Positions 6,140 through 36,801 of a DNA stretch of 40,186 nt are shown piece by piece. A model generated the notes under the pieces. It saw only the letters and a program-made list of their open reading frames with translations, was not told the DNA's origin and did no database searches. Within the stretch, counting starts at the first letter, position 1. Every line of letters starts with the position of its first letter. Position numbers and translations under genes: made by a program. The DNA is taken from IMG/VR virus record IMGVR_UViG_2728369554_000009, positions 1-40,186 of that record. One strand, given 5' to 3'. The DNA is from a virus (lineage: Duplodnaviria; Heunggongvirae; Uroviricota; Caudoviricetes).

Positions 6140-6218
6140 TAAAAAACCAAATCTGGTTGATCTTTTTTTGTGTCAGCACAAAATAACCGTAATCCCAATA
6201 CTAATAACAGGGCTTACC

Positions 6219-6419
6219 ATGGAAATCATTACACGTATTGATGCCGCAAAGCGCGGACTTAAACGCTACTACACCGGAAAACCATGTAAGCACGGACATG
6301 ACAGTGAACGCTGGGTTTACAACGGACACTGTGTTGAGTGCACCATGGAATCAAACCGTCGCATCAGGGCAGAGATTAAGCAGATCATGATTAATTCCAC
6401 CCCACAACATTCAAGCTGA
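6219..6419 (+). CDS. Small Cys/His-rich protein at the cII position (function unknown)
   Basis: ATG at 6219 (MEIITRIDAAKRGLKRYYTGKPCKHGHDSERWVYNGHCVECT...); C-x-H-x-H...C-x-x-C suggests a zinc-binding fold; the ORF-track start at 6168 is TTG. Confidence 0.45.
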   Translation: MEIITRIDAAKRGLKRYYTGKPCKHGHDSERWVYNGHCVECTMESNRRIRAEIKQIMINSTPQHSS

Positions 6420-19615: not shown

Positions 19616-22086
19616 TGGCTATCAGTTGGATCCAGCCCAGCTTTGCCGGTGGTGAGATTGGACCGTCGTTGTACGGTCGTATTGACATGGCGAAGTACCA
19701 GGTGGCATTGCGCAAGTGCGATAACTTTATCGTGCGGCAGTATGGCGGAGTTGAGAATCGACCTGGTACGCGTTTTGTCGGTGCCGCCAAATACCCAAAT
19801 CGGAAATGCCGCCTGATCCCGTTCCAGTTCTCGACGGTTCAGACTTATGCTCTGGAGTTCGGACACCAGTACATGCGCGTTATCAAAGATGGTGCGTTGG
19901 TGCTGAACAGCAGCAATGTTATTTATGAAATTTCCACGCCATATACTGAAGCCGATCTGTTCCGAATTAAATTCACGCAAAGCGCAGACGTGCTTACGCT
20001 GGTTCATCCGGCATACCCGCCGAAAGAGTTGCGCCGCTATGCGCATGACAACTGGCAACTGGTTGATGTGGTAACGAAGAACGGGCCATTTGAAGATATC
20101 AATATTGACGAGTCAGTGACGGTTTATGCCAGCGCCAGCACCGGGACAATTACGCTAACGGCAAGCGCCTCTATTTTTGGCGCGGAGCAGGTAGGCAAAT
20201 TGTTCTATCTGGAACAGCCTGCAGTGGATTCTGTGCCGGTATGGGAAACCAGTAAGAGTACGTCGATTGGCGATATTCGCCGTGCAGACAGTAACTACTA
20301 TCGCGCCGTTACAGCAGGCAAAACAGGTACTTTGCGCCCTTCGCATACAGAAGGCACATCATGGGATGGCTGGGGCGGATCCGGTGATGATGATACTGGC
20401 ATTGAGTGGGAATATCTGCACAGTGGTTTTGGCATTGCCCGTATCACTGCTGCAAATGGAACTACTGCAACTGCCGAGGTGATTTCCTATATCCCTTCGC
20501 AGGTCGTGGGCGAGGATAATGCCAGCTATAAATGGGCTAAATATGCCTGGAACAGTGTTAATGGTTATCCTGGCACTGTTGTTTATTATCAACAACGTCT
20601 TTACTTCGCCGCATCGACTGCGTTTCCTCAGACTATCTGGGCCAGCCGTACCGGGGATTATAAGGATTTTGGCAAAAGCAATCCTACGCAGGATGACGAC
20701 AGAATTATCTACACCTATGCCGGACGTCAGGTTAATGAGATCCGCCACCTGATTGATGTTGGTTCTCTGGTGGCGCTGACTTCCGGAGGTGAGTACGTCA
20801 TCACCGGCGACCAGAACAAAGTGTTAACCCCATCATCATTTGCATTCAGCTCTCAGGGATCAAATGGCTCAAGCAACGTCCCGCCAATTGCCGTGGCGAA
20901 TATTGCTCTGTTCGTCCAGGAGAAAGGCAGCGTTGTCCGTGATCTGGCCTACTCATTCGATGTTGACGGCTATCAGGGGAACGACCTGACCATCCTTGCC
21001 AATCATCTTTTTCAGAAGCACAGCATTGTTGACTGGTGCTTCTCGATTGTCCCTTACTCCAGTGCCTTCTGCATTCGTGATGACGGTAAATTACTGGTGA
21101 TGACCTATTTGCGTGATCAGCAGGTTTTTGCATGGGCACCACAATCCAGTACCGGAAAATATGAAAGCACATGCAGTATCAGCGAAGGCAATGAAGATGC
21201 GGTGTATTTCGTCGTTAACCGAACCGTTAACGGGCAAACAGTGAGATACATCGAGCGACTGTCCAGCCGTTTATTTACCAGCGATGAAGATGCTTTCTTT
21301 GTTGATTCTGGCCTTAGCTATGATGGAAGAAATACGTCTGACAGAACGATGATCATCACTGGTGGTTCTGGCGAATGGGATTACCGCGCGGAATATACAA
21401 TCAGTGTTTCTGGTGGTGCGTACTTCACCAGTAGTGATGTCGGCGCGCAACTACAGTTCCCTTATACCGGAACGGATCCTGATACTGGCGATGAAGTGTC
21501 AAAAGAATTACGTTGCGACATTATTTCTGTAACCAGCAATACCGCTGTAGTGGTTCGTCCTAACAGGAACGTCCCGCCATCCCTCAGGAATGTGGCCACC
21601 ACGAACTGGCAGATGGCGCGCCGGGCATTTGGCGGCTTGTCTCATCTTGAAGGTCAGACCGTAAACATTCTCTCTGATGCGAACGTGGAACCACAGAAAG
21701 TGGTTTCCGGAGGTGCCGTCACGCTGGAATCTACGGGGGCTGTAGTGCACATCGGCCTGCCAATAACTGCTGAATTCGAAACACTGGATATCAACATTAA
21801 CGGACAGGAAACGCTGCTGGACAAAAAACAGGTGATCCCCTCCGTTACTCTGGTTGTGAATGCCAGTCGCGGCATCTGGGCGACTACGCCCGGCGGTAAA
21901 TGGTACGAATATCCACAGCGTGAATTCGAGTTCTACGATGATCCTGTTGATGATGCTACCGGAAAAGTAGAAGTGAAACTGGACAGTAACTGGGGCAAAA
22001 ACGGACGTGTAAAAATCCGTCAGCTTGACCCGTTGCCGCTGTCTGTTCTTGCCGTTATTCCTCGCCTTACTGTTGGGGGATTCTGA
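19615..22086 (+). CDS. Tail nozzle (T7 gp12-like tail tubular protein B)
   Basis: 823 aa; N-terminal GGEIGPSLYGR and central SRTGDYKDF...DDD segments parallel T7 gp12 (recalled). Confidence 0.75.
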   Translation: MAISWIQPSFAGGEIGPSLYGRIDMAKYQVALRKCDNFIVRQYGGVENRPGTRFVGAAKYPNRKCRLIPFQFSTVQTYALEFGHQYMRVIKDGALVLNSSNVIYEISTPYTEADLFRIKFTQSADVLTLVHPAYPPKELRRYAHDNWQLVDVVTKNGPFEDINIDESVTVYASASTGTITLTASASIFGAEQVGKLFYLEQPAVDSVPVWETSKSTSIGDIRRADSNYYRAVTAGKTGTLRPSHTEGTSWDGWGGSGDDDTGIEWEYLHSGFGIARITAANGTTATAEVISYIPSQVVGEDNASYKWAKYAWNSVNGYPGTVVYYQQRLYFAASTAFPQTIWASRTGDYKDFGKSNPTQDDDRIIYTYAGRQVNEIRHLIDVGSLVALTSGGEYVITGDQNKVLTPSSFAFSSQGSNGSSNVPPIAVANIALFVQEKGSVVRDLAYSFDVDGYQGNDLTILANHLFQKHSIVDWCFSIVPYSSAFCIRDDGKLLVMTYLRDQQVFAWAPQSSTGKYESTCSISEGNEDAVYFVVNRTVNGQTVRYIERLSSRLFTSDEDAFFVDSGLSYDGRNTSDRTMIITGGSGEWDYRAEYTISVSGGAYFTSSDVGAQLQFPYTGTDPDTGDEVSKELRCDIISVTSNTAVVVRPNRNVPPSLRNVATTNWQMARRAFGGLSHLEGQTVNILSDANVEPQKVVSGGAVTLESTGAVVHIGLPITAEFETLDININGQETLLDKKQVIPSVTLVVNASRGIWATTPGGKWYEYPQREFEFYDDPVDDATGKVEVKLDSNWGKNGRVKIRQLDPLPLSVLAVIPRLTVGGF

Positions 22087-22550
22087 TGATTGACGTTCAA
22101 ATTATTCCCGCTACCGAAGAGCATCTTCAGATGATTTTGCCGGATGTTCGTCAGGCTGATATTGACGAACTGTATGCGGTATCGCTGATGACTACCGAAG
22201 ATGCACTGCGTGTTGGCCTGCGTACTGCGACTATGGCTTGGTCAGGGTTCGCGAACGGAGAACTGGTAACCATGTTTGGTGTATCTCCGGCGTCAATGAT
22301 CGGTGGCAATGGTACGCCCTGGCTGGTCGGAACCAGCCGTATTGAAAAATATCAGAAGACATTTCTGCGCCACTGCCGCCCTGTATTGCAGCAGATGCTG
22401 GCAGTTTATCCGCGCCTGGAAAACTATGTCGACGAGCGAAACCATGTTGCCAAAGCATGGCTGCACTGGCTTGGATTCAGGCTTGAAGAAGCCGCGCCTT
22501 ATGGTGCTCTTGGTCTTAATTTCCACAGATTTCACATGGAGAGAAAATAA
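22086..22550 (+). CDS. Internal virion protein (gp13 position)
   Basis: 154 aa; ATGA overlap with nozzle gene. Confidence 0.5.
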   Translation: MIDVQIIPATEEHLQMILPDVRQADIDELYAVSLMTTEDALRVGLRTATMAWSGFANGELVTMFGVSPASMIGGNGTPWLVGTSRIEKYQKTFLRHCRPVLQQMLAVYPRLENYVDERNHVAKAWLHWLGFRLEEAAPYGALGLNFHRFHMERK

Positions 22551-23125
22551 TGTGCGATCCGGTTATTGCTGGTGGCGCAATGCTCGCCATGAGTGGCATT
22601 CAGGCATACACCCAGTACCAACAGGGAAAGTATGCCTCGAAGGTTGCAGAAGCGAACGCAGATATAGCCACTGCTCAGGCAAATGATGCAATAAACAGAG
22701 GTAACGCTGAAGCTGAGCAACGGCGCAGAGAGACCCGACAGCGGCTTGGTACACAGGCGGCGACAATGGGGGCTACCGGCGCTGATTTATCTACAGGTAA
22801 CGCGCTGGATATATTTGGCGACACTGCCCAGTTTGGCGCTCTTGATTCTCTGACGACGGTGAATAACGCGCAACGCGAGGCTTACGGTTATCAGGTTCAG
22901 GCTGCCAACTATAAAGCAGAAGCCAGTTCAGCCCGTAAACAGGGGAATGTGGGAGCAGCAACAACATTGCTCACTGCGCCTCTGAAGGCATACGGTGCGT
23001 ACCAGATGTTTGGTGGGACGTGGAGTCCGTTCTCTAAAGGAAGTACATCTAGTGGTGGGACGCCAATGTTATCTAACTCAGGTTTTATGAATTCTGACTC
23101 CCGATTCAAAATAGGAGGTTACTGA
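22550..23125 (+). CDS. Internal virion / ejection protein (gp14 position)
   Basis: 191 aa, Ala/Gln-rich low complexity. Confidence 0.55.
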   Translation: MCDPVIAGGAMLAMSGIQAYTQYQQGKYASKVAEANADIATAQANDAINRGNAEAEQRRRETRQRLGTQAATMGATGADLSTGNALDIFGDTAQFGALDSLTTVNNAQREAYGYQVQAANYKAEASSARKQGNVGAATTLLTAPLKAYGAYQMFGGTWSPFSKGSTSSGGTPMLSNSGFMNSDSRFKIGGY

Positions 23126-25833
23126 TGCCTGTTGTTCCTACTACATCCGGACGCCAGGTGCAAAGTCGTGGTGTGCAAACCGGTGGTTTTCAAACCTTCG
23201 ATGTTCCTCAGGCAGGTCAGGTGCTGGCGAATGTCGCAGATCAGTATGCGGTGGCATATGGTGAAGCCAGGCAGAAAGCGAATGTTGCATTGTCTCAGGA
23301 TGCCATCCTTCAGCTTAATCAGCGCAGCAATGAACGTCTTTATAACCCTCAAACCGGTTTTTATGCACAACAAGGCAAAAATGCGATTGGTAAGGGGCAA
23401 GAGTACATATCTGGATTTGATCAGGATGTGGAAGAAATAGCTGCTTCATTGACTGATGAAGCAGCAAGAAATATGTTTTTGCAACAAGCCAGAACACAGA
23501 AAATTCAGTTCAGTACTGGAGTTCTCAGACATGAGATAGGGCAGACAAATGCCTATGAAGATGAGCAATATCAGGCAACGAGAAAATTATGGATACAAAA
23601 TGAAGCGGATGCCTGGAATGACCCGCAAACTGCCACTTTAGCCAGAAATTCCAGAATGGTAGCCATTGCCAGATATGGAGCAGCCAGGGGATGGTCACAA
23701 GAACGCATTCTGGAAGAAATAGAAAGTGATGATCGCAGTGCCACAGAAATGCGGGCGAAGAATTATGCCGCTGCTAATCCGGAAGGATGGTTAAATGGTC
23801 AGTTTCAGAAAAATGATTCTGGAGGCATGGACATGCGTGCCATACGCCTTGTTGAATCAGGTGATCGTCATTTTAATCCTGATGGTAGTATTCTTGAAGG
23901 ACCGAAAACATCTTCTGGAGAGAGGGCCCAGGGGAAATACCAGTTAATGCCGGGCACAGGGAAAGAACTGGCGGCCAAACGTGGCGTTGAATACAACCCT
24001 ACGGACGAACAACAGCATGAAATGCTCGCCAGTGACTATGTAAATCAACTGTATGGTAAGTACGGTTCCGAAATATTGACCGGAGCAGCATATAACTGGG
24101 GGATGGGTAACGTGGATAAACTGATCGCCAAAGTCGGTGATCCACGTAAAGGTGAAATATCAGAAGAAGAATTTATCCGAAATCTTCCATCAGAAACACA
24201 AGGGTGGCTTTCCCGATATAGAAAAAATAAAACTGGAATGGATCCGCTGACTATTTATCAAATAGATAACCTTGCTAATAGTCAGATAGAAAAGCAAAGG
24301 AAGTTAATATTAGAACAGCTTGAGCCAGCTATTAATAACACCATGGCCCAGCTATATAACGGTGAGGTTCCAGATTATATACCGGCTCAGGAGACCATCA
24401 TCAGGGGGTATGGAAAAAACGCAGATAAAATAATCAATCAACTGGATATAGCGATTGATAACGCGAGAATATTCCAGACAATTCAGTATTTGCCTCCTTC
24501 TCAGCAGCAAGAAGAAATGCAGAAAGTGAAGCCTGAGGTTAACGATCCTCACTATGCGTTAAAACTCGATGCTTACGGAAAATTGTCTGCATTGCTTCAG
24601 AGATCAAATGAAGCAATTCAGGCGCAACGGGATTCACGCAGATTTAATGAGGCGCTGACAATAGGTGAAAAATTAGACCCAAGCAACAAGTCAATGCAGA
24701 AAGCTGCTGATTACACAGAAATGGCGCAGAACTTTCGTATTAATGATGCCTCCACTCATGATGGGGTTGTTCGGCTTGTGGCTCAGACTGGCATAATGCC
24801 TTCGCAGGTCATCACGCAGCTTTCAGCAGTATCCCGATCCAGCAATCAGGAAGTGGTTAAAAATGCGGCGGAACTGTTTAGTCGGTTATATGAAACAGAC
24901 AATGCATCTATTGGAAATATGCCGAAGGATATGCAGGGTTTTTATCTGACTGTTAAGCAACTAACTGATGCAGGGATGTCTTCAGATGCTGCTATTGTGG
25001 AAGCGCAGAGTAAGACATACAACCAGACAGATGCACTAAGGGCGCAGCTCTCATCTGTTCAGAGTACAAGAGAATACAAAAAAGAGCGTGACAGCGCAGC
25101 CAATTCTGCTGTCAGTAATATGACTCACTGGCTTCGCTGGGATCCGTCTGCGGATGACCAGACACCGGAAGCAGCGCTCTTTCGCAATGACTATCAGATG
25201 CTGTATGACGTTAACTATCGCCTTGCTGGTGGTAACGCTGACGTAGCGAAGCAAATGACCAACCAGCAGATAGCCCGCACTTGGAGTATCAGCGAGGTCA
25301 ACGGGGAAGCACAGTTTATGAAATATGCACCGGAGGCGCTTTATCAATATGGGCCGTCAGGCTGGATTGCAGCGCAATGGAAGGCTGAAAAAGAAAAAAT
25401 CATGTATGGCGATGACTTACATAAACCGGCTCCTTCATTTAACCGACCTTCAACTGAGGCTGGTGCATTGGGACTGAATAAGCCACGCTCACTGGTTGGA
25501 GGTGAGTTGATTCTCGTTCCTGACTTATCAACTCCGAGAGATAAGCTTTATTCAGTTGTGATCAGAACAAAAGATAAAGATGGTATTACGAGGGATGATT
25601 TATTTTATGACAAGCATGGAAGACAGATGCGCTGGGGGCCATCACTAGAAGATTGGGAACCTTATAAGAAAATGCAGCAGGAACGGGAGCAGCACGAGCA
25701 GGAAGAAATTATGCGTGGACAGGCTATACGAAACTTCAAAGACAAGCATCGCGCTCTGGATGAGCAGTATCAGCGCCTGCATAACGAACGTATGGACAAA
25801 TTTAAAGATTACTTTTCGTGGGGATCTAAATAA
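23125..25833 (+). CDS. Internal core protein with soluble lytic transglycosylase (SLT) domain
   Basis: 902 aa; ERAQGKYQLMPGTGKELAAKRGVEYNP...AYNWGMGNV matches the SLT catalytic region (E...Q.MP.T...Y.WG). Confidence 0.75.
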   Translation: MPVVPTTSGRQVQSRGVQTGGFQTFDVPQAGQVLANVADQYAVAYGEARQKANVALSQDAILQLNQRSNERLYNPQTGFYAQQGKNAIGKGQEYISGFDQDVEEIAASLTDEAARNMFLQQARTQKIQFSTGVLRHEIGQTNAYEDEQYQATRKLWIQNEADAWNDPQTATLARNSRMVAIARYGAARGWSQERILEEIESDDRSATEMRAKNYAAANPEGWLNGQFQKNDSGGMDMRAIRLVESGDRHFNPDGSILEGPKTSSGERAQGKYQLMPGTGKELAAKRGVEYNPTDEQQHEMLASDYVNQLYGKYGSEILTGAAYNWGMGNVDKLIAKVGDPRKGEISEEEFIRNLPSETQGWLSRYRKNKTGMDPLTIYQIDNLANSQIEKQRKLILEQLEPAINNTMAQLYNGEVPDYIPAQETIIRGYGKNADKIINQLDIAIDNARIFQTIQYLPPSQQQEEMQKVKPEVNDPHYALKLDAYGKLSALLQRSNEAIQAQRDSRRFNEALTIGEKLDPSNKSMQKAADYTEMAQNFRINDASTHDGVVRLVAQTGIMPSQVITQLSAVSRSSNQEVVKNAAELFSRLYETDNASIGNMPKDMQGFYLTVKQLTDAGMSSDAAIVEAQSKTYNQTDALRAQLSSVQSTREYKKERDSAANSAVSNMTHWLRWDPSADDQTPEAALFRNDYQMLYDVNYRLAGGNADVAKQMTNQQIARTWSISEVNGEAQFMKYAPEALYQYGPSGWIAAQWKAEKEKIMYGDDLHKPAPSFNRPSTEAGALGLNKPRSLVGGELILVPDLSTPRDKLYSVVIRTKDKDGITRDDLFYDKHGRQMRWGPSLEDWEPYKKMQQEREQHEQEEIMRGQAIRNFKDKHRALDEQYQRLHNERMDKFKDYFSWGSK

Positions 25834-28800
25834 TGCCGTTCTATCCTGTATCTGAATCAAACAATAACGGATTTATTTCTGCTGGTCTCGCCATTCCTGA
25901 ACCTGATGAACAGAGTTTTGATGTGCATCCGCCAGAAGGTAAGAACCCTGAACCTCGTCCCAAAGAGCCTTCATTGCTTGCCGCAGCAATACGACAGAAC
26001 AATATTCTGGCTGGTTTTTTCCGTCCTGCCAGACAGTTTGAACCGGTCGAAGGTTATAACCCATATGCTGATAAAAATGAGTTGCACGGTTATGAATACT
26101 GGGGGGCGAAATTTGCAGATTCCCGATCGCCAGAGGAAACGGCGTGGATTAAGCAGCAGATAGATGATGAAAATGAAGACAGACGTTTATTGTCTGATGC
26201 TGGCGTAGTTGGAACTCTTGCCAGTATTGCTGCAGGAATGGATCCGGTTACCGTTGCGTCAATGTTTATCCCCGGTGCTCAAGGAGGGGCACTGGCGCGT
26301 ATTGGCTCACAGATTGCGATTGGTGCTGCCGGTACAGCATTAAGCGAGGTTGTGCTGAATAATCAGCAAATAACACGCTCATGGGGTGAAAGTGCCGCTC
26401 ACGTTGCAGCGGGTGCGATGATGAGCGGCGTGTTTGCCAGTGCTGGTGTTGCGCTTTCGCCATCCGTCCGGGCTGCAGCCACGCGTGAGGTTGCTGATGC
26501 TCTTGATAATATGAGCATTACATCAGCGACTGACAGGGCTGCCGCTTCGCTTTCTGATGGTGGTAGTGTTGGTGCTATGAAAATTGATACAGCGACTCTG
26601 GATGATTTAACCCCTGTTTCCGGTGGGTGGGTTGGAAAGGCTGCATGGAAAGCAGGGAGCTATCTTACTCCTTTGACAAGGTTAATGGAGTCTCCGTCCA
26701 AGACAGTGCGAAAAACAACGCTGGAGTTAGCCGAAAATAATTTCACCCTTAAAGGAAATGAAAGGGGGATTGAAACACCGGTAGCTGTAGAAACCCGTAC
26801 ACGTGGATGGCAGCGTGAAGAAGCTGCTGTTGTTGTCGGAAATAAACAGGCATACGCAAAGTATAAAGCTGATGGTGGTGACATGAGTTTTGATTCATTT
26901 CGTCAGCAGGTTGGGAATGCTATGCGAAGCGGTGATGTGCATGCTAATCCTGTTGTTCAGGAAACGGCGCAGGCGATGCGAACTGTATTAAATCGGGTGA
27001 AAGTTGAAATGCAAAAGCTTGGTTTATTGCCGCCAGATGAAGAACTGAAAGCATTAGGCCAGGCAAGCTATTTCCCACGCATATATAAAGTTGGAAAAAT
27101 AATCAGTGAACGCGATAAATTTCGACGTATTTTGGTTGACTGGTGGTCGAGAGGAAATAAAACACTGGATCCTGAGGATGCTGAAATTGCAGCGGATATC
27201 GTAATTAATAAAATTACTGGTGCTAAGGTTCCACAGGATTTTGTCAGCGTATTTTCTGTAAAAGCCGCAGGTAGTACGAAAGAAAGAACATTAAATGTTC
27301 CTGATAGTCTTATCGGTGATTATCTTGAAAGTGATGTGAATTACGTGCTGCAACGTCATATCCGTGAAGCGGCAGCAGAAATTGAGTTGATGAGAACATT
27401 TGGCAAACGAACTATGACTGAGCGTCTGCAATTAATTGAGGACGAATATGACAGTCTGTTACGGGAAGTGCCTGAAAAAATAAAGGCGAAATATGACGAA
27501 AGTGTGGCAAATCTGAAAGCACGTTATGAGAGCAATGGTGAAGTTGTTCCTCAGGGTAAACTCGATTCATTAATGCGAAAGTACGAAAAGGAATTACGGA
27601 AAGAACAGTCCAGACTTTCAAAATCAAGAGCAAATGATCTCAGAGACATAACAGCATTACGCGATCGTCTTGTTGGTACATATGGGATGCCTGATGATCC
27701 GTCTTCGTTTTTTGTTCGTGCTGGCGCTTTTCTGCGGGATGTGAACTTCACGACCAAACTCGGTGGAATGACAGTATCAGCTATTCCAGATCTGGCCAGA
27801 GGGGTTATGGTTAATGGTTTCCGTAACACCATGAAAGGCTATGCTTCTCAGATATCCCAATCACCGGCATTTAAGGCCAGCAAAGAAGATATGTTGAAGA
27901 TGGGGATTGGATTGGAAGCTGTACTACATTCACGTTCTCGTGCAATTGGTGATCTTGTTGACAGTTCTTCCAGGACAACAGCAGTCGAAGCAGGAATGGA
28001 GCGAATTACTGATGCCTTCGGCAAGCTGACACTCATGGATCGATTTAATGACATAAACAAATCCATGAACGGAATGCTCACGTCAGACGGTATTTTGTCC
28101 GGTGCGTTTTCTGCACGTCGCATGGCAAAACTCGGTATCAACGACAATATGGCTGCGCGTATTCGCAGTGAGTTCGAGAAACATGGTGAGGTAATTGATG
28201 GATGGCACATTGGTAACTTTGATAAATGGGACGATCAGTACGTTGCCGGAGTATTCCAGTCAGCGGTTCTGAAAGACGTTAATAACACTATCATCACCCC
28301 CGGTATTGGTGACACACCTTTATGGGCGAGTACTCCAATGGGGCGAACGATATTTCAGTTTAAATCATTCACAACGGCTTCATACAACCGTGCGCTACTT
28401 GGTGGGTTACAGGAAGGAACTGCGCAATTTTATTATGGCACTGCATTTCAGATTGCTCTTGGCTCACTGGTCTATGCGCTTAAAGAAGCATCGAAAGGGA
28501 AAAATGTTGACTGGTCACCAGAGAAGCTGGTGCTTGAGGGTATAGATAGATCCGGTATTCTTGGGCCATTGATGGAATATAACAACATGGCTGAAAAGGC
28601 GACTGGTGGTGCTGTTGGGCTGGGGGCTTTATTTGGCACTGGCACACAGTCCAGGTATGCCAGTCGTGGATTCGTAGGATCTCTATTCGGACCGTCATTT
28701 GGTCTTGCGGATAGCATCATTGATGTGACCTCAGGAGTGTTGAATGGTGATGCCGGTGATCGTATTGTGCATAATGTCCGAACCCTGATACCCGGCAATA

Positions 28801-28853
28801 ACCTGTTCTGGATTGCGCCACTAATAAACCAAGTGGATCCGGTGATGCGTTAA
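25833..28853 (+). CDS. Large internal core / ejection protein (gp16 position)
   Basis: 1006 aa; last of the coupled run of large virion proteins. Confidence 0.65.
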   Translation: MPFYPVSESNNNGFISAGLAIPEPDEQSFDVHPPEGKNPEPRPKEPSLLAAAIRQNNILAGFFRPARQFEPVEGYNPYADKNELHGYEYWGAKFADSRSPEETAWIKQQIDDENEDRRLLSDAGVVGTLASIAAGMDPVTVASMFIPGAQGGALARIGSQIAIGAAGTALSEVVLNNQQITRSWGESAAHVAAGAMMSGVFASAGVALSPSVRAAATREVADALDNMSITSATDRAAASLSDGGSVGAMKIDTATLDDLTPVSGGWVGKAAWKAGSYLTPLTRLMESPSKTVRKTTLELAENNFTLKGNERGIETPVAVETRTRGWQREEAAVVVGNKQAYAKYKADGGDMSFDSFRQQVGNAMRSGDVHANPVVQETAQAMRTVLNRVKVEMQKLGLLPPDEELKALGQASYFPRIYKVGKIISERDKFRRILVDWWSRGNKTLDPEDAEIAADIVINKITGAKVPQDFVSVFSVKAAGSTKERTLNVPDSLIGDYLESDVNYVLQRHIREAAAEIELMRTFGKRTMTERLQLIEDEYDSLLREVPEKIKAKYDESVANLKARYESNGEVVPQGKLDSLMRKYEKELRKEQSRLSKSRANDLRDITALRDRLVGTYGMPDDPSSFFVRAGAFLRDVNFTTKLGGMTVSAIPDLARGVMVNGFRNTMKGYASQISQSPAFKASKEDMLKMGIGLEAVLHSRSRAIGDLVDSSSRTTAVEAGMERITDAFGKLTLMDRFNDINKSMNGMLTSDGILSGAFSARRMAKLGINDNMAARIRSEFEKHGEVIDGWHIGNFDKWDDQYVAGVFQSAVLKDVNNTIITPGIGDTPLWASTPMGRTIFQFKSFTTASYNRALLGGLQEGTAQFYYGTAFQIALGSLVYALKEASKGKNVDWSPEKLVLEGIDRSGILGPLMEYNNMAEKATGGAVGLGALFGTGTQSRYASRGFVGSLFGPSFGLADSIIDVTSGVLNGDAGDRIVHNVRTLIPGNNLFWIAPLINQVDPVMR

Positions 28854-28874
28854 TCAATATTTATTGGAGTTCTT

Positions 28875-29402
28875 TCAATGGCTGTTTATGGCTTCTAAAG
28901 AAGCTTCTGCACTTATCGGCAAAGCAATAGTATCCTTGTTAGATGTGCTATTGCTTTCCAGAACTATGGAAATCCAATCCTCTTGGTTTTCATTAATTGT
29001 GCTGACAGCCATGATAGCATTCAAATCATTTTTATATATTTCTGATCGAATAAGACCTTTCCTGAATAATTTAGTTAAGTTTTCAGCTATCGACATCGCA
29101 CGAATGCTAACTTTACTAAGCTCAATTGCGTCACTACCTGCGACTTTGGCGTGTTGAGAAAGAGCCATCAAAGCTATATGTGAAAATGTTTCTTCTTTTG
29201 AAAAACCGTTACTTAAAGACATGAGTGATACACCAGCTCCGTATGGGGTGAGTTTATATCCTGATACATTCAGTGCATGCTCTACAAAGGTAAGATCATC
29301 AGTTGTAGAAACATGCATATCGTTACTTTTTTGTTTTTTTGCAATAAATAAAAAAACAAAATTAATAATCACGATGCCGACGATGATTAAGAAAACTTCC
29401 AT
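28875..29402 (-). CDS. Membrane-anchored hypothetical moron protein
   Basis: 175 aa; N-terminal TM helix MEVFLIIVGIVIINFVFLFIA; gene is AT-rich relative to neighbours; SD GAGGAA; operator-like palindrome 29423-29437 just upstream. Confidence 0.55.
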   Translation of the reverse strand: MEVFLIIVGIVIINFVFLFIAKKQKSNDMHVSTTDDLTFVEHALNVSGYKLTPYGAGVSLMSLSNGFSKEETFSHIALMALSQHAKVAGSDAIELSKVSIRAMSIAENLTKLFRKGLIRSEIYKNDLNAIMAVSTINENQEDWISIVLESNSTSNKDTIALPISAEASLEAINSH

Positions 29403-29422
29403 TGCTTTTCCTCACAATAACA

Positions 29423-29437
29423 TTACCTTAAAGGTAA
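29423..29437. promoter_or_regulatory. Operator-like palindrome TTACC-N5-GGTAA
   Basis: TTACCTTAAAGGTAA ~20 bp upstream of membrane-protein moron start (29402). Confidence 0.5.
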
Positions 29438-29462
29438 TATTTTGTGCTAATGTGATCAAGTG

Positions 29463-29861
29463 TTAAGTGTATACCTCCTGCTGTTCAGTCGTGATTTTAC
29501 CCGGCAACACCTTTTTAGCTTTGCGCGGGTTAACCACATGGCCTTTAGTCCAGTACTCGTAGAGCACATCATCACACTCTTCCTGATACTGGATTACCTT
29601 ATCGCGGATTTCAGGGCGGACTTTGTTTGGACTGATGCTGTTCAACCAAGCTGCCAATTTTCGTAAAGCCATACAAATCATGGCTTGCACCCCTCCGGCA
29701 GAAGGTATGGTGATTTCCACCATACCCTTCGAGAAGCGTTGAGAAATCTTCTTATGTTGAGATTTCCAGTCTAGACCCATTCCCTCAACGATAGGTTTCA
29801 TTGGGGTGTACGGTTCGCCGTTGTGATTGACAACATAAAGTTCTACGCCGTGGAATGGCAC
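29463..29861 (-). CDS. Hypothetical phage protein (possibly regulatory)
   Basis: 132-aa protein-like ORF; start ambiguous (GTG 29861 or ATG 29801); divergent from antirepressor leader. Confidence 0.45.
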   Translation of the reverse strand: MPFHGVELYVVNHNGEPYTPMKPIVEGMGLDWKSQHKKISQRFSKGMVEITIPSAGGVQAMICMALRKLAAWLNSISPNKVRPEIRDKVIQYQEECDDVLYEYWTKGHVVNPRKAKKVLPGKITTEQQEVYT

Positions 29862-30023: not shown

Positions 30024-30103
30024 ATTTACATCGCACTCCTCTTGTGCCATAGTAATCGGGCACTGGCAAAATCCAGTGCCGGGATTGGTCTCCCGGATTA
30101 CTA
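30009..30103. repeat. Left arm of perfect 95-bp inverted repeat (antirepressor leader)
   Basis: Reverse complement of 33103-33197 with no mismatches by eye; includes palindrome 30009-30023, -35-like TTTACA and two hairpins. Confidence 0.85.
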
Positions 30104-30290
30104 CAGAGGCACATATGCCGCATAAGCGGTTTTTTTATGTGTAAAGCGCACCTATTCTATGGTGGGCTGTGTGGGGGCACCGAAAGGTGCGCCGGGTTCC
30201 TTTGTAGCCGGTAAGACCAACTCTGCACAGTTCACCACCATCTGATTGGTCTCAGCGGTGGTGATTAACCTAACTACAAAGGTGATCGCC
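30024..30290 (+). ncRNA. Structured 5' leader / candidate sRNA upstream of Bro-N antirepressor gene
   Basis: Hairpins at 30059-30080, 30079-30096, terminator hairpin+T7 at 30118-30136, GAAA-tetraloop hairpin 30177-30190, 8-bp-stem hairpin 30232-30264; mirrored with compensatory changes in the AntA leader. Confidence 0.45.
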
Positions 30291-30983
30291 ATGAATACCA
30301 AACCTTCCATCTTTTCCTTTGAGTCATCCTGCCAGATCCGTATGTTCATGATTGACGGAGAACCTTGGTTTGTCACCAAAGATGTGTGCAATGCTTTGAA
30401 TATTGATGTTACACAAGCGAGAAAACTTGATAAAAAAGGCTGGAACAAAAAGGGGCTGTATTCAATACAGACCCCTGGTGGAATACAAGAACTATCCATC
30501 GTTTCAGAATCAGGTCTCTACATCCTTATTCTGCGTTGCAAAGAGGCAATGACTGAGGGAACGAGAGCATTCAGATTTCTTGAATGGGTTACAGGTGAGG
30601 TTCTTCCTCAGATCCGCCGCACCGGAAGTTACATTAAAAACTCGCTCCCGCAGGAAGAACGCATAAAGATGGTTGCCGACCAGGTAGCCAACGCCACGGC
30701 GTCAGCAGTAATGCAGGCGATGAAGATAGAGAACAAAACCTACAGTGCCCCGCTGAAGCCCGGCTACCGCAGCCTGATTCATTCTCCGTCTGGTGTTCTC
30801 GGCCTGACGGAGAACTCACTGCTGATGAATCTGCTGAACCAGTTACAGGAAGACGGGCACGATGTATCGGGCGCGGCGGCGGAGCTGACCACCATGTTCT
30901 GCTACATCGTCGGTGTGAGCAAATGCCTGCGTGATATCCAGACGCACGCGGAATACATCAACGACAAGGCAGGGTTCTTCTGA
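30291..30983 (+). CDS. Antirepressor-family protein: Bro-N domain fused to shared C-terminal (KilAC-like) domain
   Basis: N-terminus FSFESSCQIRMFMIDGEPWFVTKDVCNAL...ESGLYILILR fits Bro-N; C-terminal ~78 aa near-identical to C-terminus of 32255-32911 gene; ATG 30291 after AAAGGTGA. Confidence 0.7.
   Translation: MNTKPSIFSFESSCQIRMFMIDGEPWFVTKDVCNALNIDVTQARKLDKKGWNKKGLYSIQTPGGIQELSIVSESGLYILILRCKEAMTEGTRAFRFLEWVTGEVLPQIRRTGSYIKNSLPQEERIKMVADQVANATASAVMQAMKIENKTYSAPLKPGYRSLIHSPSGVLGLTENSLLMNLLNQLQEDGHDVSGAAAELTTMFCYIVGVSKCLRDIQTHAEYINDKAGFF
30741..30983. repeat. Left copy of ~243-bp inverted repeat encoding the shared antirepressor C-terminal domain
   Basis: Near-identical (a handful of substitutions) to reverse complement of 32255-32497. 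Confidence 0.85.
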
Positions 30984-31299: not shown

Positions 31300-31812
31300 C
31301 TATGCAGGCTTTTTGGATTTGTACGAATAATCCCACGGATAAACATTTCTACTAAGTGGAGCTGTATTCGTTCGTTCATGAAATAATTTTGTGAAATTCA
31401 ATACGGAATCCATCCAAACTTTTGCGTTAGCTTTGGTGTGTGCGGGCGGGTCCCAATAAGCTAGTAAGGCTGCATCTCTTATTTCATTGACTGCATATAT
31501 GAGATATGCGTTACTGGTTGGTTTTGGCCTGTAATTTCCTTGTTCATCAATCAATCCATATGACCACTCATCCCAACACTGTTCAGTACATGAGTATGAA
31601 TATGATGCATATTCACCAATATTGACATGAACCTTTCTGAGATGGAAGCCTAATACTTCCTCTGGTCTTTCAAAAAGAGTATCTTTTCCCAGATCAGGAT
31701 GATGACCATGACGCCAGTGTTGTTTAAAAGCATCTTTTAGCGAAATCAGAAAGTCATCAGTTTTAAACTCACCAGTAGGTATAACCTTCCCGCTATACTC
31801 ACTCAAAAACAT
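31300..31812 (-). CDS. YafO-like putative toxin (AT-rich moron)
   Basis: 170 aa; PDLGKDTLFERPEEV...AYLIYAVNEIRDAALLAYWDPPAH parallels my recollection of E. coli YafO (PDTFGRDALYDD...AHLVYCQGAFDEQAWLLIAILKPEPH); SD GGAAGAGG; overlaps upstream gene by 14 nt. Confidence 0.45.
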   Translation of the reverse strand: MFLSEYSGKVIPTGEFKTDDFLISLKDAFKQHWRHGHHPDLGKDTLFERPEEVLGFHLRKVHVNIGEYASYSYSCTEQCWDEWSYGLIDEQGNYRPKPTSNAYLIYAVNEIRDAALLAYWDPPAHTKANAKVWMDSVLNFTKLFHERTNTAPLSRNVYPWDYSYKSKKPA

Positions 31813-32125
31813 CGAATTCCTCTTCCTTCATATGCGTTTCTAATGAGTTAAGCTGGCGGAAAGATATCTCTTTTGATTCTGCAGATGAGAGCTTTTTTAT
31901 CCGCTTTATATTCTTTGTGATAGGAATAGACATTGTATGCACATCAGCGGATGCTCTTGGCTTTGTGCTGATAAAAATATGGCGCAATGCCGCATTTTCA
32001 CTATTGAACGAGCCAATAGCTGATTTACGTGCTACAACCTTACCAGTAAAAATACGACTCTTGCTACGCTTTGCATGAGTTCCGCTTCTTACCGGACCTC
32101 TCATCACGAATCCAAGTTTTGTCAT
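31799..32125 (-). CDS. Basic hypothetical protein, upstream partner of YafO-like gene
   Basis: 108 aa, Lys/Arg-rich with acidic C-terminus EEEFDVFE; SD GGAGAT; operator-like palindrome 32168-32182 upstream; not recognisably a known antitoxin. Confidence 0.4.
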   Translation of the reverse strand: MTKLGFVMRGPVRSGTHAKRSKSRIFTGKVVARKSAIGSFNSENAALRHIFISTKPRASADVHTMSIPITKNIKRIKKLSSAESKEISFRQLNSLETHMKEEEFDVFE

Positions 32126-32167: not shown

Positions 32168-32182
32168 TTACCTTTAAGGTAA
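32168..32182. promoter_or_regulatory. Operator-like palindrome TTACC-N5-GGTAA
   Basis: TTACCTTTAAGGTAA ~45 bp upstream of 32125 gene start. Confidence 0.5.
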
Positions 32183-32254: not shown

Positions 32255-32497
32255 TCAGAAGAACCCTGCCTTGTCGTTGATGTACTCCGCGTGGGTCTGG
32301 ATATCACGCAGGCATTTGCTCACACCGACGATGTAGCAGAACATGGTGGTCAGCTCCGCCGCCGCGCCCGATACGTCGTGCCCGTCGTCCTGTAACTGGT
32401 TCAGCAGATTCATCAGCAGTGAGTTCTCCGTCAGGCCGAGAACACCAGACGGCGAATGAATCAGGCTGCGGTAGCCGGGCTTCAGTGGGGCGCTGTA
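32255..32497. repeat. Right copy of ~243-bp inverted repeat encoding the shared antirepressor C-terminal domain
   Basis: Near-identical to reverse complement of 30741-30983. Confidence 0.85.
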
Positions 32498-32911
32498 TTC
32501 TTTTTTGTCTTCCAGCTTGATCGCCTCCATTATGGCGGGCATGAAGCCTGACAAGACCTTCTCCACTTTTGTTTCTTGTTGTCTTAAACGTTTCTCGCAT
32601 TCAATGAAGTAGCGTCGCACCTGGCGACCTTTTTCGTTACGCTCGACCATCGCCAGCTCTTTGGCTGTATCAAGGGTGAGGTGGTACTCTTTGCGGTTGT
32701 GGCCGCCTCTACCAGATGTTTGCTTTCCCAAATTGGAAAGCAAAATATAGTCTTGATTTTCAATGAATTCGTATTCTGATATGCGATTTGTAATCCATGC
32801 TGCAAACACCTTTTTAACACCTAAAAAAGCGTGCAGATCGCGGGCATTACAAAGTAGGGCTGTTTCGTTAGATATAGTGCCGTTGAATACGGGGATGAGT
32901 TGAGCGTTCAT
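32255..32911 (-). CDS. Antirepressor-family protein: AntA-like N-terminal domain fused to shared C-terminal (KilAC-like) domain
   Basis: N-terminus [28 protein letters not shown]...[22 protein letters not shown] fits AntA; C-terminal ~78 aa near-identical to the Bro-N gene. Confidence 0.7.
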
Positions 32912-33182
32912 GATGGCGTCTCCACTTAGCGAATTACATCACCACCGCTGAGACCAATCAGATGGTGGTGAACTGAACGGAGTTGGTCTTACCGGCCTAA
33001 GTGGTACCGGCGTCCTTTCGGACCCCCATTCAGCCCACCATAATTCTGGCATGACTGTGCTATACGCATAAAAAAACCACGTCTGGCGTGGTATGCGCCA
33101 CTTAGTAATCCGGGAGACCAATCCCGGCACTGGATTTTGCCAGTGCCCGATTACTATGGCACAAGAGGAGTGCGATGTAAAT
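32912..33182 (-). ncRNA. Structured 5' leader / candidate sRNA upstream of AntA antirepressor gene
   Basis: Mirror of the Bro-N leader: same hairpins, terminator stem CCACG-CCAGA-CGTGG+T7 (33076-33090), GTCC-GAAA-GGAC (33012-33023), conserved hairpin 32939-32971. Confidence 0.45.
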
Positions 33183-33681: not shown

Positions 33682-36600
33682 ATGACGGTCTCAACCGAAG
33701 TTGACCACAACGAATACACCGGTAACGGCGTTACGACATCGTTTCCGTATACTTTTCGAATTTTCAGAAAATCAGACCTGGTTGTTCAGGTGTCTGACCT
33801 GAACGGAAACGTAACAGAATTGGTTCTGGATACCGGTTATACGGTAACTGGGGCGGGCACTTATAGTGGCGGTTCTGTGGTTCTTCCGTCTCCGCTTGCT
33901 ACTGGATGGCGAATTACGATAGATCGTGTGCTTGATGTAGTGCAGGAGACAGACCTTCGCAATCAGGGAAAATTTTTCCCCGAAGTGCATGAAGATGCCT
34001 TTGACTACCTGACGATGCTGATCCAGCAATGTTTTGGGTGGTTCAGACGTGCATTGATGAAACCATCTTTGCTTGCAAAATATTACGATGCAAAGCAAAA
34101 CAAAATTTCTAACCTTGCAGATCCATCATTTGAGCAGGACGCTGTAAATAATCGCTCAATGCGTAATTATGTCGATGCTGCAATCGCCGGGGTTGTTGGT
34201 GGTTTTGGTTGGTTTATTCAGTATGGTTCTGGGGCTGTGTACCGAACGTTCCAGGATAAAATGCGTGATGCTATTAGCCCCAAAGATTTTGGAGCTGTTG
34301 GTGATGGTATAAATGACGATTCCACTGCAATAAGCGCGTGCCTTGAAGCCTCATCTCCAGGTTATAAAATTGACGGATTAGGGCTTACTTTTAAAGTATC
34401 AACTCTTCCGGATGTCAGTCGATTTAAAAATGCTCGTTTTTTATTTGAGAGAATACCGGGCCAGCCTCTTTTTTATGCTTCTGAAGATTTTATCCAGGGA
34501 GAGTTATTTAAAATTACAGATACACCGTGGTACAACGCCTGGACGCAGGATAAAACGTTTGTATATGACAATGTCATCTATGCGCCTTTTATGGCTGGAG
34601 ACCGCCATGGTGTAAATAACCTCCATGTTGCATGGGTTCGCTCAGGAGATGACGGGAAGACCTGGACAACGCCGGAATGGCTTACAGATTTACATGAAAA
34701 CTATCCCACAGTTAACTATCACTGCATGAGTATGGGGGTTGTCAGAAATCGCCTTTTTGCTGTAATTGAGACGCGGACCGTGAGCGGAAATAAACTGCAG
34801 GTTGCAGAGTTGTGGGATCGCCCAATGAGTCGCAGCCTTCGCGTTTATGGTGGTATAACGAAAGCAGCAAATCAGCAAGTCGCTTATATTCGCATTACTG
34901 ATCACGGATTATTTGCTGGTGATTTTGTCAACTTCTCAAACTCTGGTGTTACAGGTGTTACCGGGAATATGACGGTGACTACTGTTATTGATAAAAATAC
35001 TTTTACAGTTACGACGCAAAATACCCAGGATGTGGATCAGAATAACGAGGGTAGATACTGGAGTTTTGGTACATCATTTCACTCGTCACCATGGAGAAAA
35101 ACCAGTCTTGGAACTATTCCTTCTTTTGTTGACGGAAGCACTCCTGTTACTGAGATTCACAGTTTTGCGACGATTAGCGATAACAGTTTTGCTGTTGGCT
35201 ACCATAATGGTGATATTGGTCCACGCGAGCTTGGGATACTCTATTTCTCTGATGCTTTCGGTTCTCCTGGTAGCTTTATTCGCAGACGCATACCTGCAGA
35301 ATATGAGGCGAATGCATCTGAGCCATGTGTAAAATATTATGATGGCATTCTGTATCTGACGACCAGGGGGACATTAAGTACTCAACCCGGTAGTTCATTG
35401 CACAGAAGCTCTGATTTAGGTACATCATGGAATTCTCTTCGCTTCCCAAATAATGTTCATCACTCAAACCTTCCTTTTGCCAAAGTTGGCGATGAGCTGA
35501 TTATTTTTGGCAGTGAGCGCGCATTTGGTGAGTGGGAAGGAGGAGAACCTGATAACCGTTATGCAGGAAATTATCCAAGAACATTTATGACCAGAGTTAA
35601 CGTCAATGAGTGGAGTCTGGATAATGTAGAGTGGGTTAATGTTACTGATCAGATTTATCAGGGCGGAATAGTTAACTCTGCGGTTGGTGTTGGTTCAGTT
35701 TGTATCAAAGACAACTGGCTGTACTACATTTTCGGTGGGGAAGACTTTCTAAACCCATGGAGCATAGGGGATAACAACAGAAAATATCCTTATGTTCACG
35801 ATGGTCACCCGGCTGATTTATATTGTTTCAGGGTGAAAATCAAACAGGAAGAATTTGTTTCAAGGGATTTTGTCTACGGAGCCACTCCTAACAGAACGCT
35901 TCCTACTTTTATGTCGACGTCAGGCGTGAGGACGGTTCCTGTACCCGTTGATTTCACAGATGATGTTGCCGTCCAGTCACTGACTGTCCATGCAGGTACA
36001 TCAGGACAAGTTCGCGCGGAAGTCAAACTTGAGGGTAATTACGCCATTATTGCGAAGAAAGTACCGTCTGATGATGTTACCGCTCAGAGATTAATCGTTA
36101 GCGGCGGTGAAACAACGTCTTCAGCAGATGGTGCAATGATAACGTTGCATGGTTCCGGAAGCAGTACTCCACGTCGCGCGGTATATAACGCACTCGAACA
36201 TCTTTTTGAGAACGGAGATGTTAAACCTTATCTTGATAATGTAAATGCTCTTGGTGGTCCGGGAAACAGGTTCTCGACAGTTTATCTTGGCTCCAATCCT
36301 GTGGTTACCAGTGACGGAACATTAAAGACAGAGCCGGTCTCTCCTGACGAAGCATTGCTGGATGCCTGGGGTGACGTCAGGTATATCGCTTATAAATGGC
36401 TGAACGCTGTCGCTATAAAGGGGGAAGAAGGGGCGAGGATACATCATGGTGTAATCGCGCAGCAACTTCGTGATGTTCTTATTTCTCACGGACTCATGGA
36501 AGAAGAAAGCACAACATGCCGCTATGCCTTTCTTTGCTATGACGATTATCCCGCAGTATATGATGACGTCATTACTGGCCAAAGGGAAATGCCGCTGACT

Positions 36601-36801
36601 GATAATGAAGGGAGCATCATTGTTGATGAGGATGATAATCCAGTGATGGTAATGGAAGACATCATTGAGCGCGTTGAAATAACGCCAGCAGGATCTAGAT
36701 GGGGGGTCAGACCTGATCTCTTATTCTATATCGAGGCAGCATGGCAGCGCAGAGAAATGGATAAGATAAAAGAGCGGATTCAGTCTCTGGAAGAACGTTA
36801 A
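33682..36801 (+). CDS. Tailspike / tail fibre with beta-helix depolymerase-like domain and C-terminal intramolecular chaperone (peptidase S74-type) domain
   Basis: 1039 aa; DFGAVGDGINDDSTAI pectate-lyase-like beta-helix signature; C-terminal ...ARIHHGVIAQQLRDVL... matches the GVIAQE-type chaperone domain of endosialidase-like fibres. Confidence 0.8.
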   Translation: MTVSTEVDHNEYTGNGVTTSFPYTFRIFRKSDLVVQVSDLNGNVTELVLDTGYTVTGAGTYSGGSVVLPSPLATGWRITIDRVLDVVQETDLRNQGKFFPEVHEDAFDYLTMLIQQCFGWFRRALMKPSLLAKYYDAKQNKISNLADPSFEQDAVNNRSMRNYVDAAIAGVVGGFGWFIQYGSGAVYRTFQDKMRDAISPKDFGAVGDGINDDSTAISACLEASSPGYKIDGLGLTFKVSTLPDVSRFKNARFLFERIPGQPLFYASEDFIQGELFKITDTPWYNAWTQDKTFVYDNVIYAPFMAGDRHGVNNLHVAWVRSGDDGKTWTTPEWLTDLHENYPTVNYHCMSMGVVRNRLFAVIETRTVSGNKLQVAELWDRPMSRSLRVYGGITKAANQQVAYIRITDHGLFAGDFVNFSNSGVTGVTGNMTVTTVIDKNTFTVTTQNTQDVDQNNEGRYWSFGTSFHSSPWRKTSLGTIPSFVDGSTPVTEIHSFATISDNSFAVGYHNGDIGPRELGILYFSDAFGSPGSFIRRRIPAEYEANASEPCVKYYDGILYLTTRGTLSTQPGSSLHRSSDLGTSWNSLRFPNNVHHSNLPFAKVGDELIIFGSERAFGEWEGGEPDNRYAGNYPRTFMTRVNVNEWSLDNVEWVNVTDQIYQGGIVNSAVGVGSVCIKDNWLYYIFGGEDFLNPWSIGDNNRKYPYVHDGHPADLYCFRVKIKQEEFVSRDFVYGATPNRTLPTFMSTSGVRTVPVPVDFTDDVAVQSLTVHAGTSGQVRAEVKLEGNYAIIAKKVPSDDVTAQRLIVSGGETTSSADGAMITLHGSGSSTPRRAVYNALEHLFENGDVKPYLDNVNALGGPGNRFSTVYLGSNPVVTSDGTLKTEPVSPDEALLDAWGDVRYIAYKWLNAVAIKGEEGARIHHGVIAQQLRDVLISHGLMEEESTTCRYAFLCYDDYPAVYDDVITGQREMPLTDNEGSIIVDEDDNPVMVMEDIIERVEITPAGSRWGVRPDLLFYIEAAWQRREMDKIKERIQSLEER

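Follow-up and report, generated by a model that had tools for sequence, protein, structure and literature searches.

A membrane-anchored accessory gene beside the ejection genes of an epsilon15-like Escherichia coli prophage is probably under prophage repressor control

We analysed a window of 40,186 nucleotides (nt), the full length of the viral record IMGVR_UViG_2728369554_000009 (IMG/VR; Caudoviricetes), with attention to one gene for a protein of 175 amino acids (aa) at positions 28875–29402 on the minus strand. An original prediction, made from the sequence letters, had taken this gene for a horizontally acquired lysogenic-conversion moron or superinfection-exclusion gene. We found a repressor operator directly at its predicted promoter; the 175-aa gene probably belongs to the prophage repressor regulon, and its expression in the prophage state is predicted to be low, i.e., the gene is probably kept repressed in the lysogen and turned on by infection or induction. 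The best overall explanation, to which we assign a probability of about 40%, is a membrane-anchored, repressor-regulated accessory gene, with exclusion at the inner membrane as the leading guess for its role. The original prediction is plausible as to functional class but probably mistaken on regulation. The right half of the window matched Escherichia phage TL-2011b best in megablast (65% coverage, 95.6% identity), followed by phiv142-3, ZX5 and phiV10 and then by more distant Salmonella and Enterobacter relatives. Judged by these relatives, the window is a temperate podophage genome of E. coli, epsilon15/phiV10-like (Uetakevirus-type).

The coding sequence starts with ATG, and its product is identical to RefSeq WP_000451652.1 ('hypothetical protein'). 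As originally described, the open reading frame (ORF) lies on the minus strand directly after the internal core protein genes; it converges on the last of them, a 1006-aa core-protein gene (25833–28853; PHROG 342/16310 match), across a gap of 21 nt that contains no terminator-like site. The segment had also been called more AT-rich than the flanking virion genes, and a sliding-window calculation agreed. The ORF has a G+C content (GC) of 35.4%, with 29.5% at third codon positions, against 48.2% for the window and 46.2% for the flanking virion gene; it forms the lowest 528 bp (base pairs) of the window, the minimum over all 528-bp windows of the 40 kb lying at 28921 and merely 0.4% of them being as low. 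The Shine–Dalgarno (SD) sequence attributed to the gene was found as GAGGA at 29409–29413 on the minus strand (GAGG at 29410–29413), 7 nt 5' of the ATG, and is invariant in alignment A2. Two E. coli alleles differ at 24 nt with a dN/dS (nonsynonymous to synonymous rate ratio) of 0.26, and the reading frame is intact at every locus examined. ORF 28875–29402 is a genuine gene on the strength of this dN/dS and the intact loci, together with 109 homolog clusters, an AlphaFold2 model with a pLDDT of 94, and the conserved SD and start codon. The same observations effectively refute the notion of a spurious ORF or a decaying remnant within AT-rich junk DNA, which could appeal to the joining of the gene to a truncated ant pseudogene and to its annotation as just hypothetical, and which we regard as having a negligible chance of being correct.

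Upstream of the start codon lies a 17-bp perfect palindrome, ATTACCTTTAAGGTAAT (29422–29438, both strands), of the epsilon15 repressor-operator type. Its extended arms cover 29419–29441, where 29419–29429 and 29431–29441 pair at 10 of 11 positions; the near edge stands 17–20 nt and the centre 28 nt upstream of the ATG, and the span reaches to approximately 39 nt. An operator-like palindrome about 20 bp upstream had been noted in the original prediction, and the motif proved to be present far above chance. The window contains 12 perfect copies of TTACC-N5-GGTAA (0.05 expected) and 3 with one mismatch (1.2 expected); the 17-mer with at most three mismatches gave 15 hits over both strands, i.e., 9 distinct window sites, against 0.08 expected. 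All TTACC-N5-GGTAA sites are intergenic, with one or two per transcription unit.

These operators, whose positions are given as the start of each 15-mer, are spread over every transcription unit of the phage. Operators 4966 and 5028, 62 bp apart, flank a TTGACA (PL-like) promoter downstream of the repressor gene, and operators 5740, 5764 (two mismatches) and 5788 are spaced by 24 bp between the 194-aa repressor gene (5100–5684, minus strand) and a cro-like gene. Operator 6125 is intergenic, 5' of ORF 6168–6419, and operators 8094 and 8156, again 62 bp apart, flank a promoter. Operators 10539 and 10557 precede the small terminase gene, 13804 precedes the portal gene, and 29423 precedes the 175-aa gene. 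The remaining sites are those at the two ant promoters (30009 and 33183), before an operon with a YafO-like toxin gene (32168), and before the tailspike gene (33563). The presumed operator binder is the 194-aa prophage repressor, a dual-helix-turn-helix (HTH) protein (Pfam HTH_3) with 99% identity to the phiV10 and ZX5 repressor; overexpression of the ZX5 repressor shuts off lytic transcription globally (PMC9782041). In the epsilon15 reference record, seven sites of the identical motif are annotated as 'protein_bind: repressor, lysogeny' at equivalent places. The operator is conserved at every 175-aa locus examined, and the ATTACC-N5-GGTAAT form that marks the epsilon15-type regulon at the sequence level is present in the promoter region of the 175-aa gene.

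A promoter-like sequence, TTAACA-16 nt-CAAAAT, was identified at 29439–29466 on the minus strand by a consensus scan (9/12 matches). The predicted −10 is followed one base later by the operator, which covers the probable start of transcription, and the interval between operator and SD is too short for a promoter. The same layout of a −10 followed by an operator is found at the ant promoter (TTGATT-18-TATTAT), the PL-like promoter and the 8156 promoter. It is because the repressor operator abuts the predicted −10 as at these promoters that we place the 175-aa gene in the regulon and predict low expression in the lysogen.

This geometry bears directly on the classical moron that had been proposed, i.e., a gene whose own promoter is constitutively active in the lysogen and which confers superinfection exclusion or another lysogenic-conversion phenotype. 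Such a gene would be expected to look much as this one does: AT-rich relative to its flanks, preceded by its own promoter-like sequence and running counter to the late operon, and in exact positional analogy with the P22 gene sieA, which is expressed from the prophage (PMC10883804); moreover, a Proteus homolog adjoins a cI-like repressor gene. However, the perfect 17-bp operator that abuts the −10 and covers the likely start reproduces the geometry of the lytic PL-like and ant promoters, no terminator-like site separates the gene from the convergent virion gene, and TL-2011b has no perfect operator near oac (O-acetyltransferase) or the genes gp39 and gp40 that occupy the same slot (scan for perfect matches only). 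We consider a constitutively expressed moron unlikely. What stands of the original proposal is a dispensable, non-virion accessory gene (absent from 50,697 phage records) of deviant composition; its expression in the lysogen is doubtful, given the operator abutting the −10.

Several observations weigh against the repressor-regulated exclusion gene that we favour. Repressor binding to the motif is a matter of annotation or prediction only, and the promoter of the 175-aa gene is a 9/12 consensus match only. In epsilon15, a perfect site lies 28–42 nt upstream of the conversion operon gp22-gp21. This operon is active in lysogens; thus, an operator near a start codon need not mean silence, and the similar distance in epsilon15 suggests, in favour of a moron, that such sites may not silence. 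The fold and profile searches described below give no homology tie to exclusion, and at least one member of the wider family lies in an ordinary chromosomal neighbourhood. In addition, the Klebsiella and Serratia homologs are unanchored and the Klebsiella gene is co-oriented with the late operon, which is a misfit for a uniform membrane-exclusion model. The epsilon15 site itself (L026 24704–24718) is located between the gp22-gp21 serotype-conversion operon and the lysis cassette and carries no repressor annotation in the record.

The original prediction described a single N-terminal transmembrane (TM) helix followed by a soluble domain, and hydropathy and AlphaFold2 both agree with it. The helix comprises residues of about 3–21 (codons at 29340–29396, minus strand), within an AlphaFold2 helix of residues 2–45. 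The protein has one hydrophobic segment, within residues 1–26 (Kyte–Doolittle 19-residue mean up to 3.18), followed by KKQK, and hydropathy revealed no further TM segment C-terminal of KKQK. Residues of about 35–175 (codons at 28878–29300, minus strand) form an all-alpha soluble domain of approximately 125–140 aa according to phmmer and AlphaFold2. The AlphaFold2 model, built with a 61-sequence alignment, reached a pTM of 0.80, and its pLDDT is >93 across the soluble domain; the model and alignments A1 and A3 cover residues 2–175, and model numbering equals protein numbering minus 1.

The homolog clusters were retrieved by phmmer from 1.84 billion representatives and match query residues of about 35–160. 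The sole family hit of the protein is a full-length match to PHROG 21690 (175/175 positions, E 7.5e-104); this PHROG has no functional annotation, and membership therefore says nothing on function. No family had been recognised in the original prediction either, and none emerged here: scans of Pfam and NCBIfam found no family for the 175-aa protein, and the PADLOC-DB defence profiles gave nothing at E ≤ 1 for it or for a homolog with 47% identity. When 61 family members were scanned against Pfam, no consistent family appeared, the matches to MksE being scattered and sub-threshold. The PDB sequence-profile search returned chance matches only, Foldseek with the predicted structure against PDB and BFVD gave nothing under E 0.2, and literature searches with the accession numbers, the PHROG id or the operator motif gave no result. 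With its 109 clusters and no Pfam entry or PDB/BFVD fold match, the ~125-aa all-alpha domain is, by sequence and predicted fold, an undescribed family that is new to curation.

The domain occurs in various architectures: alone (130–150 aa), behind N-terminal TM anchors, behind a MarR-like winged HTH (wHTH), duplicated, and once before a C-terminal tail anchor. The MarR-like N-terminus was seen in a single relative in the Pfam scan of 61 members. Gly, Ala and Leu make up most of the best-conserved positions, the others being E71, S74, N125-D126, Q140 and W143. Two further positions of the wider family, D84 and H101, are H and R in the phage subfamily; therefore, a catalytic signature cannot be claimed. 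In each homolog with a TM anchor, the helix is followed by basic residues, the homologs of Klebsiella and Serratia have neither a TM helix nor a signal peptide, and one relative has its anchor at the C-terminal tail. From these three features, we infer an N-out, C-in topology that would place the domain at the cytoplasmic face of the inner membrane.

The gene is rarely encountered. A tblastn search of the protein against the 50,697 phage records, including all isolated epsilon15-like phages, gave no match, and a scan of viral contigs found no relative. It is carried by 6 of 5,426 complete E. coli genomes, and nine close clusters, from E. coli and E. albertii, were found in 5.8 billion proteins. 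This absence from all phage isolates and scarcity among complete genomes mark it as a rare and dispensable accessory gene. At the E. coli loci examined, it always converges on the last core-protein gene, with a 132-aa P22_AR_N antirepressor remnant upstream, and the tailspikes and other accessory genes differ among these loci. Sister prophages with the same 175-aa gene carry very different tailspikes (Pect-lyase, Peptidase_S74, Phage_tail_beta).

Distant homologs (32–40% identity) fill the same slot in epsilon15-like prophages of Proteus, Klebsiella and Serratia, and the slot is thus shared over four genera, counting Escherichia (E. coli and E. albertii). The Proteus terrae homolog is TM-anchored and convergent with the ejection genes. 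The Klebsiella pneumoniae homolog (134 aa) is TM-less and is the last gene of the late operon, with which it is co-oriented, 22 nt after a 102-aa ORF with two TM helices; the Serratia marcescens homolog is TM-less and convergent. Between E. coli and Proteus, the domain is 39% identical and the neighbouring ejection-protein genes 49% and 35%; between Klebsiella and Serratia, the corresponding values are 58% for the domain and 72% and 52% for the neighbours. Across the two clades, E. coli/Proteus and Klebsiella/Serratia, the gene is still recognisable, whereas the last core protein is not. The GC of the gene is below that of its flanks in all four genera. A divergence that tracks the neighbouring ejection genes, together with an AT bias found in four genera, speaks for a gene that has long stood beside the ejection module and not for one picked up recently at random. 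The original description of the gene as horizontally acquired is too simple for a gene that occupies one slot in four genera and diverges with its neighbours.

Adjacency to internal-virion genes with co-divergence in four genera, and a co-oriented Klebsiella gene 22 nt after the small ORF that ends the late operon, would also fit an accessory of ejection or morphogenesis, i.e., a factor that chaperones the membrane-active internal virion proteins or gives self-immunity to them, or a protein that is itself packaged and ejected. We consider this very unlikely: no sequenced phage isolate carries the gene, epsilon15, phiV10, ZX5 and TL-2011b being viable phages that lack it; in E. coli, Proteus and Serratia, it is on the other strand from the late operon; and homologs also occur beside a cI-like gene and in non-phage contexts. 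The homolog beside the cI-like gene belongs to a Proteus prophage and lies directly downstream of the repressor gene, i.e., at the position of lambda rexAB. Other homologs were found near Ogr/Delta and Psu genes and in an integrative island beside a type I restriction-modification (R-M) system.

Elsewhere, the slot beside the ejection genes holds other content, namely gp39 and gp40 in TL-2011b, a 46-aa protein with two TM helices in phiV10, and gp18 in epsilon15. TL-2011b gp39 (locus L001 9339–9902, minus strand) encodes a 187-aa protein that has a TM helix at its N-terminus and weakly matches a TIR-like (ThsB) PADLOC profile (E 0.005), which hints at the slot as a hotspot for defence or exclusion cargo. 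Small proteins of 46–114 aa with two TM helices are also encoded directly after the last internal-virion gene, and co-oriented with it, in Klebsiella, Proteus and Serratia prophages and in phiV10 (L015 9670–9978; L014 10606–10902, minus strand; L018 10395–10739, minus strand; L023 5346–5486). Those of Klebsiella and Proteus are weakly related (31% identity, E 2e-8). The TM-less homologs might have such a small protein as their membrane partner; we tested for a Rosetta-stone link by comparing the neighbouring small ORFs with family-member N-termini and rejected it, as no similarity was found.

We then compared the 175-aa gene with known systems. In P22, gene 16 (plus strand) is followed after a 22-nt gap by sieA (minus strand, 164 aa, own promoter), then by mnt/arc/ant and the tailspike gene, and the window is positionally alike: a gene of similar size converges at ~21–22 nt on the last ejection gene and is followed by the immI/antirepressor region and the tailspike. 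Both genes encode membrane proteins with a promoter of their own, that of the 175-aa gene being predicted. Leavitt et al. 2024 (PMC10883804) describe SieA as a block to DNA injection, with escape mutants in the ejection proteins gp16 and gp20. The SieA family has an FxRYPxEAxxFNK cytoplasmic motif and three (type A) or four (types B and C) TM helices (PMC10883804), whereas the 175-aa protein has one TM helix and a large soluble domain, and the motif is absent from its sequence. Homology to SieA was rejected, as the BLASTP match (E 0.21 over 7 residues) is a chance match. The hosts of SieA are P22-like, whereas the 175-aa gene resides in an epsilon15-like phage with T7-type core proteins, and P22 sieA is prophage-expressed, whereas the promoter of the 175-aa gene carries a prophage repressor operator. 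As far as sequence comparison can tell, the 175-aa protein is a positional analogue of SieA only and not a member of its family.

T4 Imm (mentioned in PMC12373910) offers a second comparison; it is a protein of ~83 aa from a virulent myovirus. The likeness consists of the single N-terminal anchor, an expression predicted for infected cells and not for a silent prophage, and the hypothesised block of DNA entry; no sequence similarity is expected. The predicted timing of the 175-aa protein would resemble that of T4 Imm more than that of SieA. A third comparison concerns regulation. In P1, one repressor (C1) acts at operators dispersed over many transcription units, including the antirepressor operon, and immI consists of c4-icd-ant. 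In the window, the ant paralogs are likewise preceded by an operator and by isrK and C4 antisense RNAs (Rfam), and the 175-aa gene would be in the same regulon. The window differs from P1 in that its operator is a symmetric 17-mer, predicted to be bound by a dual-HTH repressor, and the phage is a podovirus; the 175-aa gene has no P1 counterpart.

In the repressor-regulated reading that we favour, the 194-aa repressor would bind the operator abutting the −10 and hold the 175-aa gene down in the established lysogen. Infection or induction would switch the gene on at the same time as the early and antirepressor genes. Acting at the cytoplasmic face of the inner membrane, the protein could then interfere with completion of the DNA-ejection conduit of superinfecting podophages. 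It would act as an exclusion protein of the lytic or establishment phase, like T4 Imm in timing and P22 SieA in target. Exclusion is the leading guess for the function, reached by inference only; we rank it first because the gene is persistently linked to the ejection module, is placed like sieA and encodes a membrane-tethered protein, and because other small genes of membrane or defence-like type occur in this slot.

A repressor-controlled, membrane-tethered protein might also act on a host target and not on incoming phages, as an early lytic host-takeover or counter-defence factor directed, for example, at cell division, a membrane-bound abortive-infection effector or a transporter. Membership in the repressor regulon together with the antirepressors is what such a factor would show, and a domain that probably faces the cytoplasm and is fused to many N-terminal parts, including a MarR-like wHTH, resembles a protein-binding module; one relative, in the integrative island, stands beside the type I R-M system. 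However, there is no similarity to known inhibitor or anti-defence families, and a host target would leave the persistent linkage to the ejection cluster in four genera unexplained. We judge this alternative somewhat improbable.

A bolder form of the exclusion reading was also considered. The domain may represent a new family of exclusion proteins that target the ejection conduit and travel with the internal-virion module of epsilon15-like podophages through four or more genera of enterobacteria. The form in the E. coli lineage would be membrane-anchored and under the immunity repressor, with exclusion switched on by the lytic decision and protecting the infected or induced cell and not the quiescent lysogen. 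We hold this extended version to be doubtful; if true, such repressor-controlled exclusion would be the temperate-phage counterpart of T4 Imm.

The promoter region of the gene appears to be a portable unit. A head module of approximately 76 nt (29390–29466, minus strand) comprises promoter, operator, SD and the first four codons (MEVF). Its 71 nt at 29390–29460, with the −10, operator, SD and MEVF, have 91.5% identity to sequence in 126 further complete E. coli genomes, and the similarity extends through the −35 in alignment A2. In other prophages, the same module precedes the gene of an unrelated 242-aa protein (WP_000451762/764), found at L002 3285–4013 (minus strand), L003 10200–10928 and L005 3525–4253. 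Some prophages carry both the 175-aa and 242-aa genes, in opposite orientation, at the two ends of the antirepressor region. The 242-aa protein has an N-terminal TM helix and a Cys-rich C-terminus with repeated CxxC pairs (zinc-ribbon-like) and gave no family hit; the genomes in which its gene shares the head module include enterotoxigenic E. coli H10407.

Upstream of the module, the −35 of the 175-aa gene overlaps the stop codon of a truncated P22_AR_N antirepressor of 132 aa (29463–29861, minus strand; Pfam PF10547, E 5e-44, N-terminal domain only). This ant remnant is a RefSeq pseudogene with the note 'missing C-terminus' and has 96% identity to CUS-3 ant. It shows what reads as a recombination scar, at which the 175-aa gene with its head module was joined onto the 3' end of a broken ant.

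The wider setting is as follows. The T7-type internal-virion (ejection) genes occupy 22086–28853 and encode a T7_gp14 family protein, an SLT-domain protein and the PHROG 342/16310 match. Further downstream lies the tailspike gene (33682–36801, plus strand; 1039 aa), whose MS8345 counterpart of equal 1039-aa length is annotated in RefSeq with an endosialidase catalytic beta-propeller domain; this annotation suggests a K1-capsule-specific host range of the present epsilon15-like prophage. Two inverted copies of an isrK Hfq-binding small RNA followed by a C4 antisense RNA were found at 30060–30242 (plus strand) and 32961–33146 (minus strand), with Rfam scores of 61–79 bits. Each copy sits between a repressor operator and an antirepressor gene (Bro-N, 30246–30983; AntA, 32255–32911), an isrK-C4-ant arrangement that amounts to a duplicated P1-type immI (c4-ant) control region within a podophage. 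An AT-rich two-gene cassette at 31300–32125 (minus strand), with the operator at 32168 upstream, consists of a 108-aa ORF and then a gene for a 170-aa protein that weakly matches the YafO toxin (Pfam E 7e-4, under the cut-off; PHROG 1651); the cassette may be a toxin-antitoxin or abortive-infection module.

The proposed system is within the known kinds of phage accessory systems, its family is uncurated, and the hypothesis is readily testable. The analysis brings to attention an uncurated family of domains, ~110 clusters in size, that is absent from Pfam and lacks a solved structure, as well as a portable promoter-operator-SD-MEVF module that is reused by unrelated membrane-protein genes. Whatever the function, an AT-rich, opposite-strand gene that looks like a moron would here be wired into the prophage repressor regulon, a caution that composition and orientation alone do not establish expression in the prophage state. 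If the exclusion reading is true, the 175-aa protein would be a structurally new exclusion protein for temperate podophages of the T7-core type, and its genetic linkage to the probable target, the ejection proteins, would make the mechanism testable by escape-mutant mapping.

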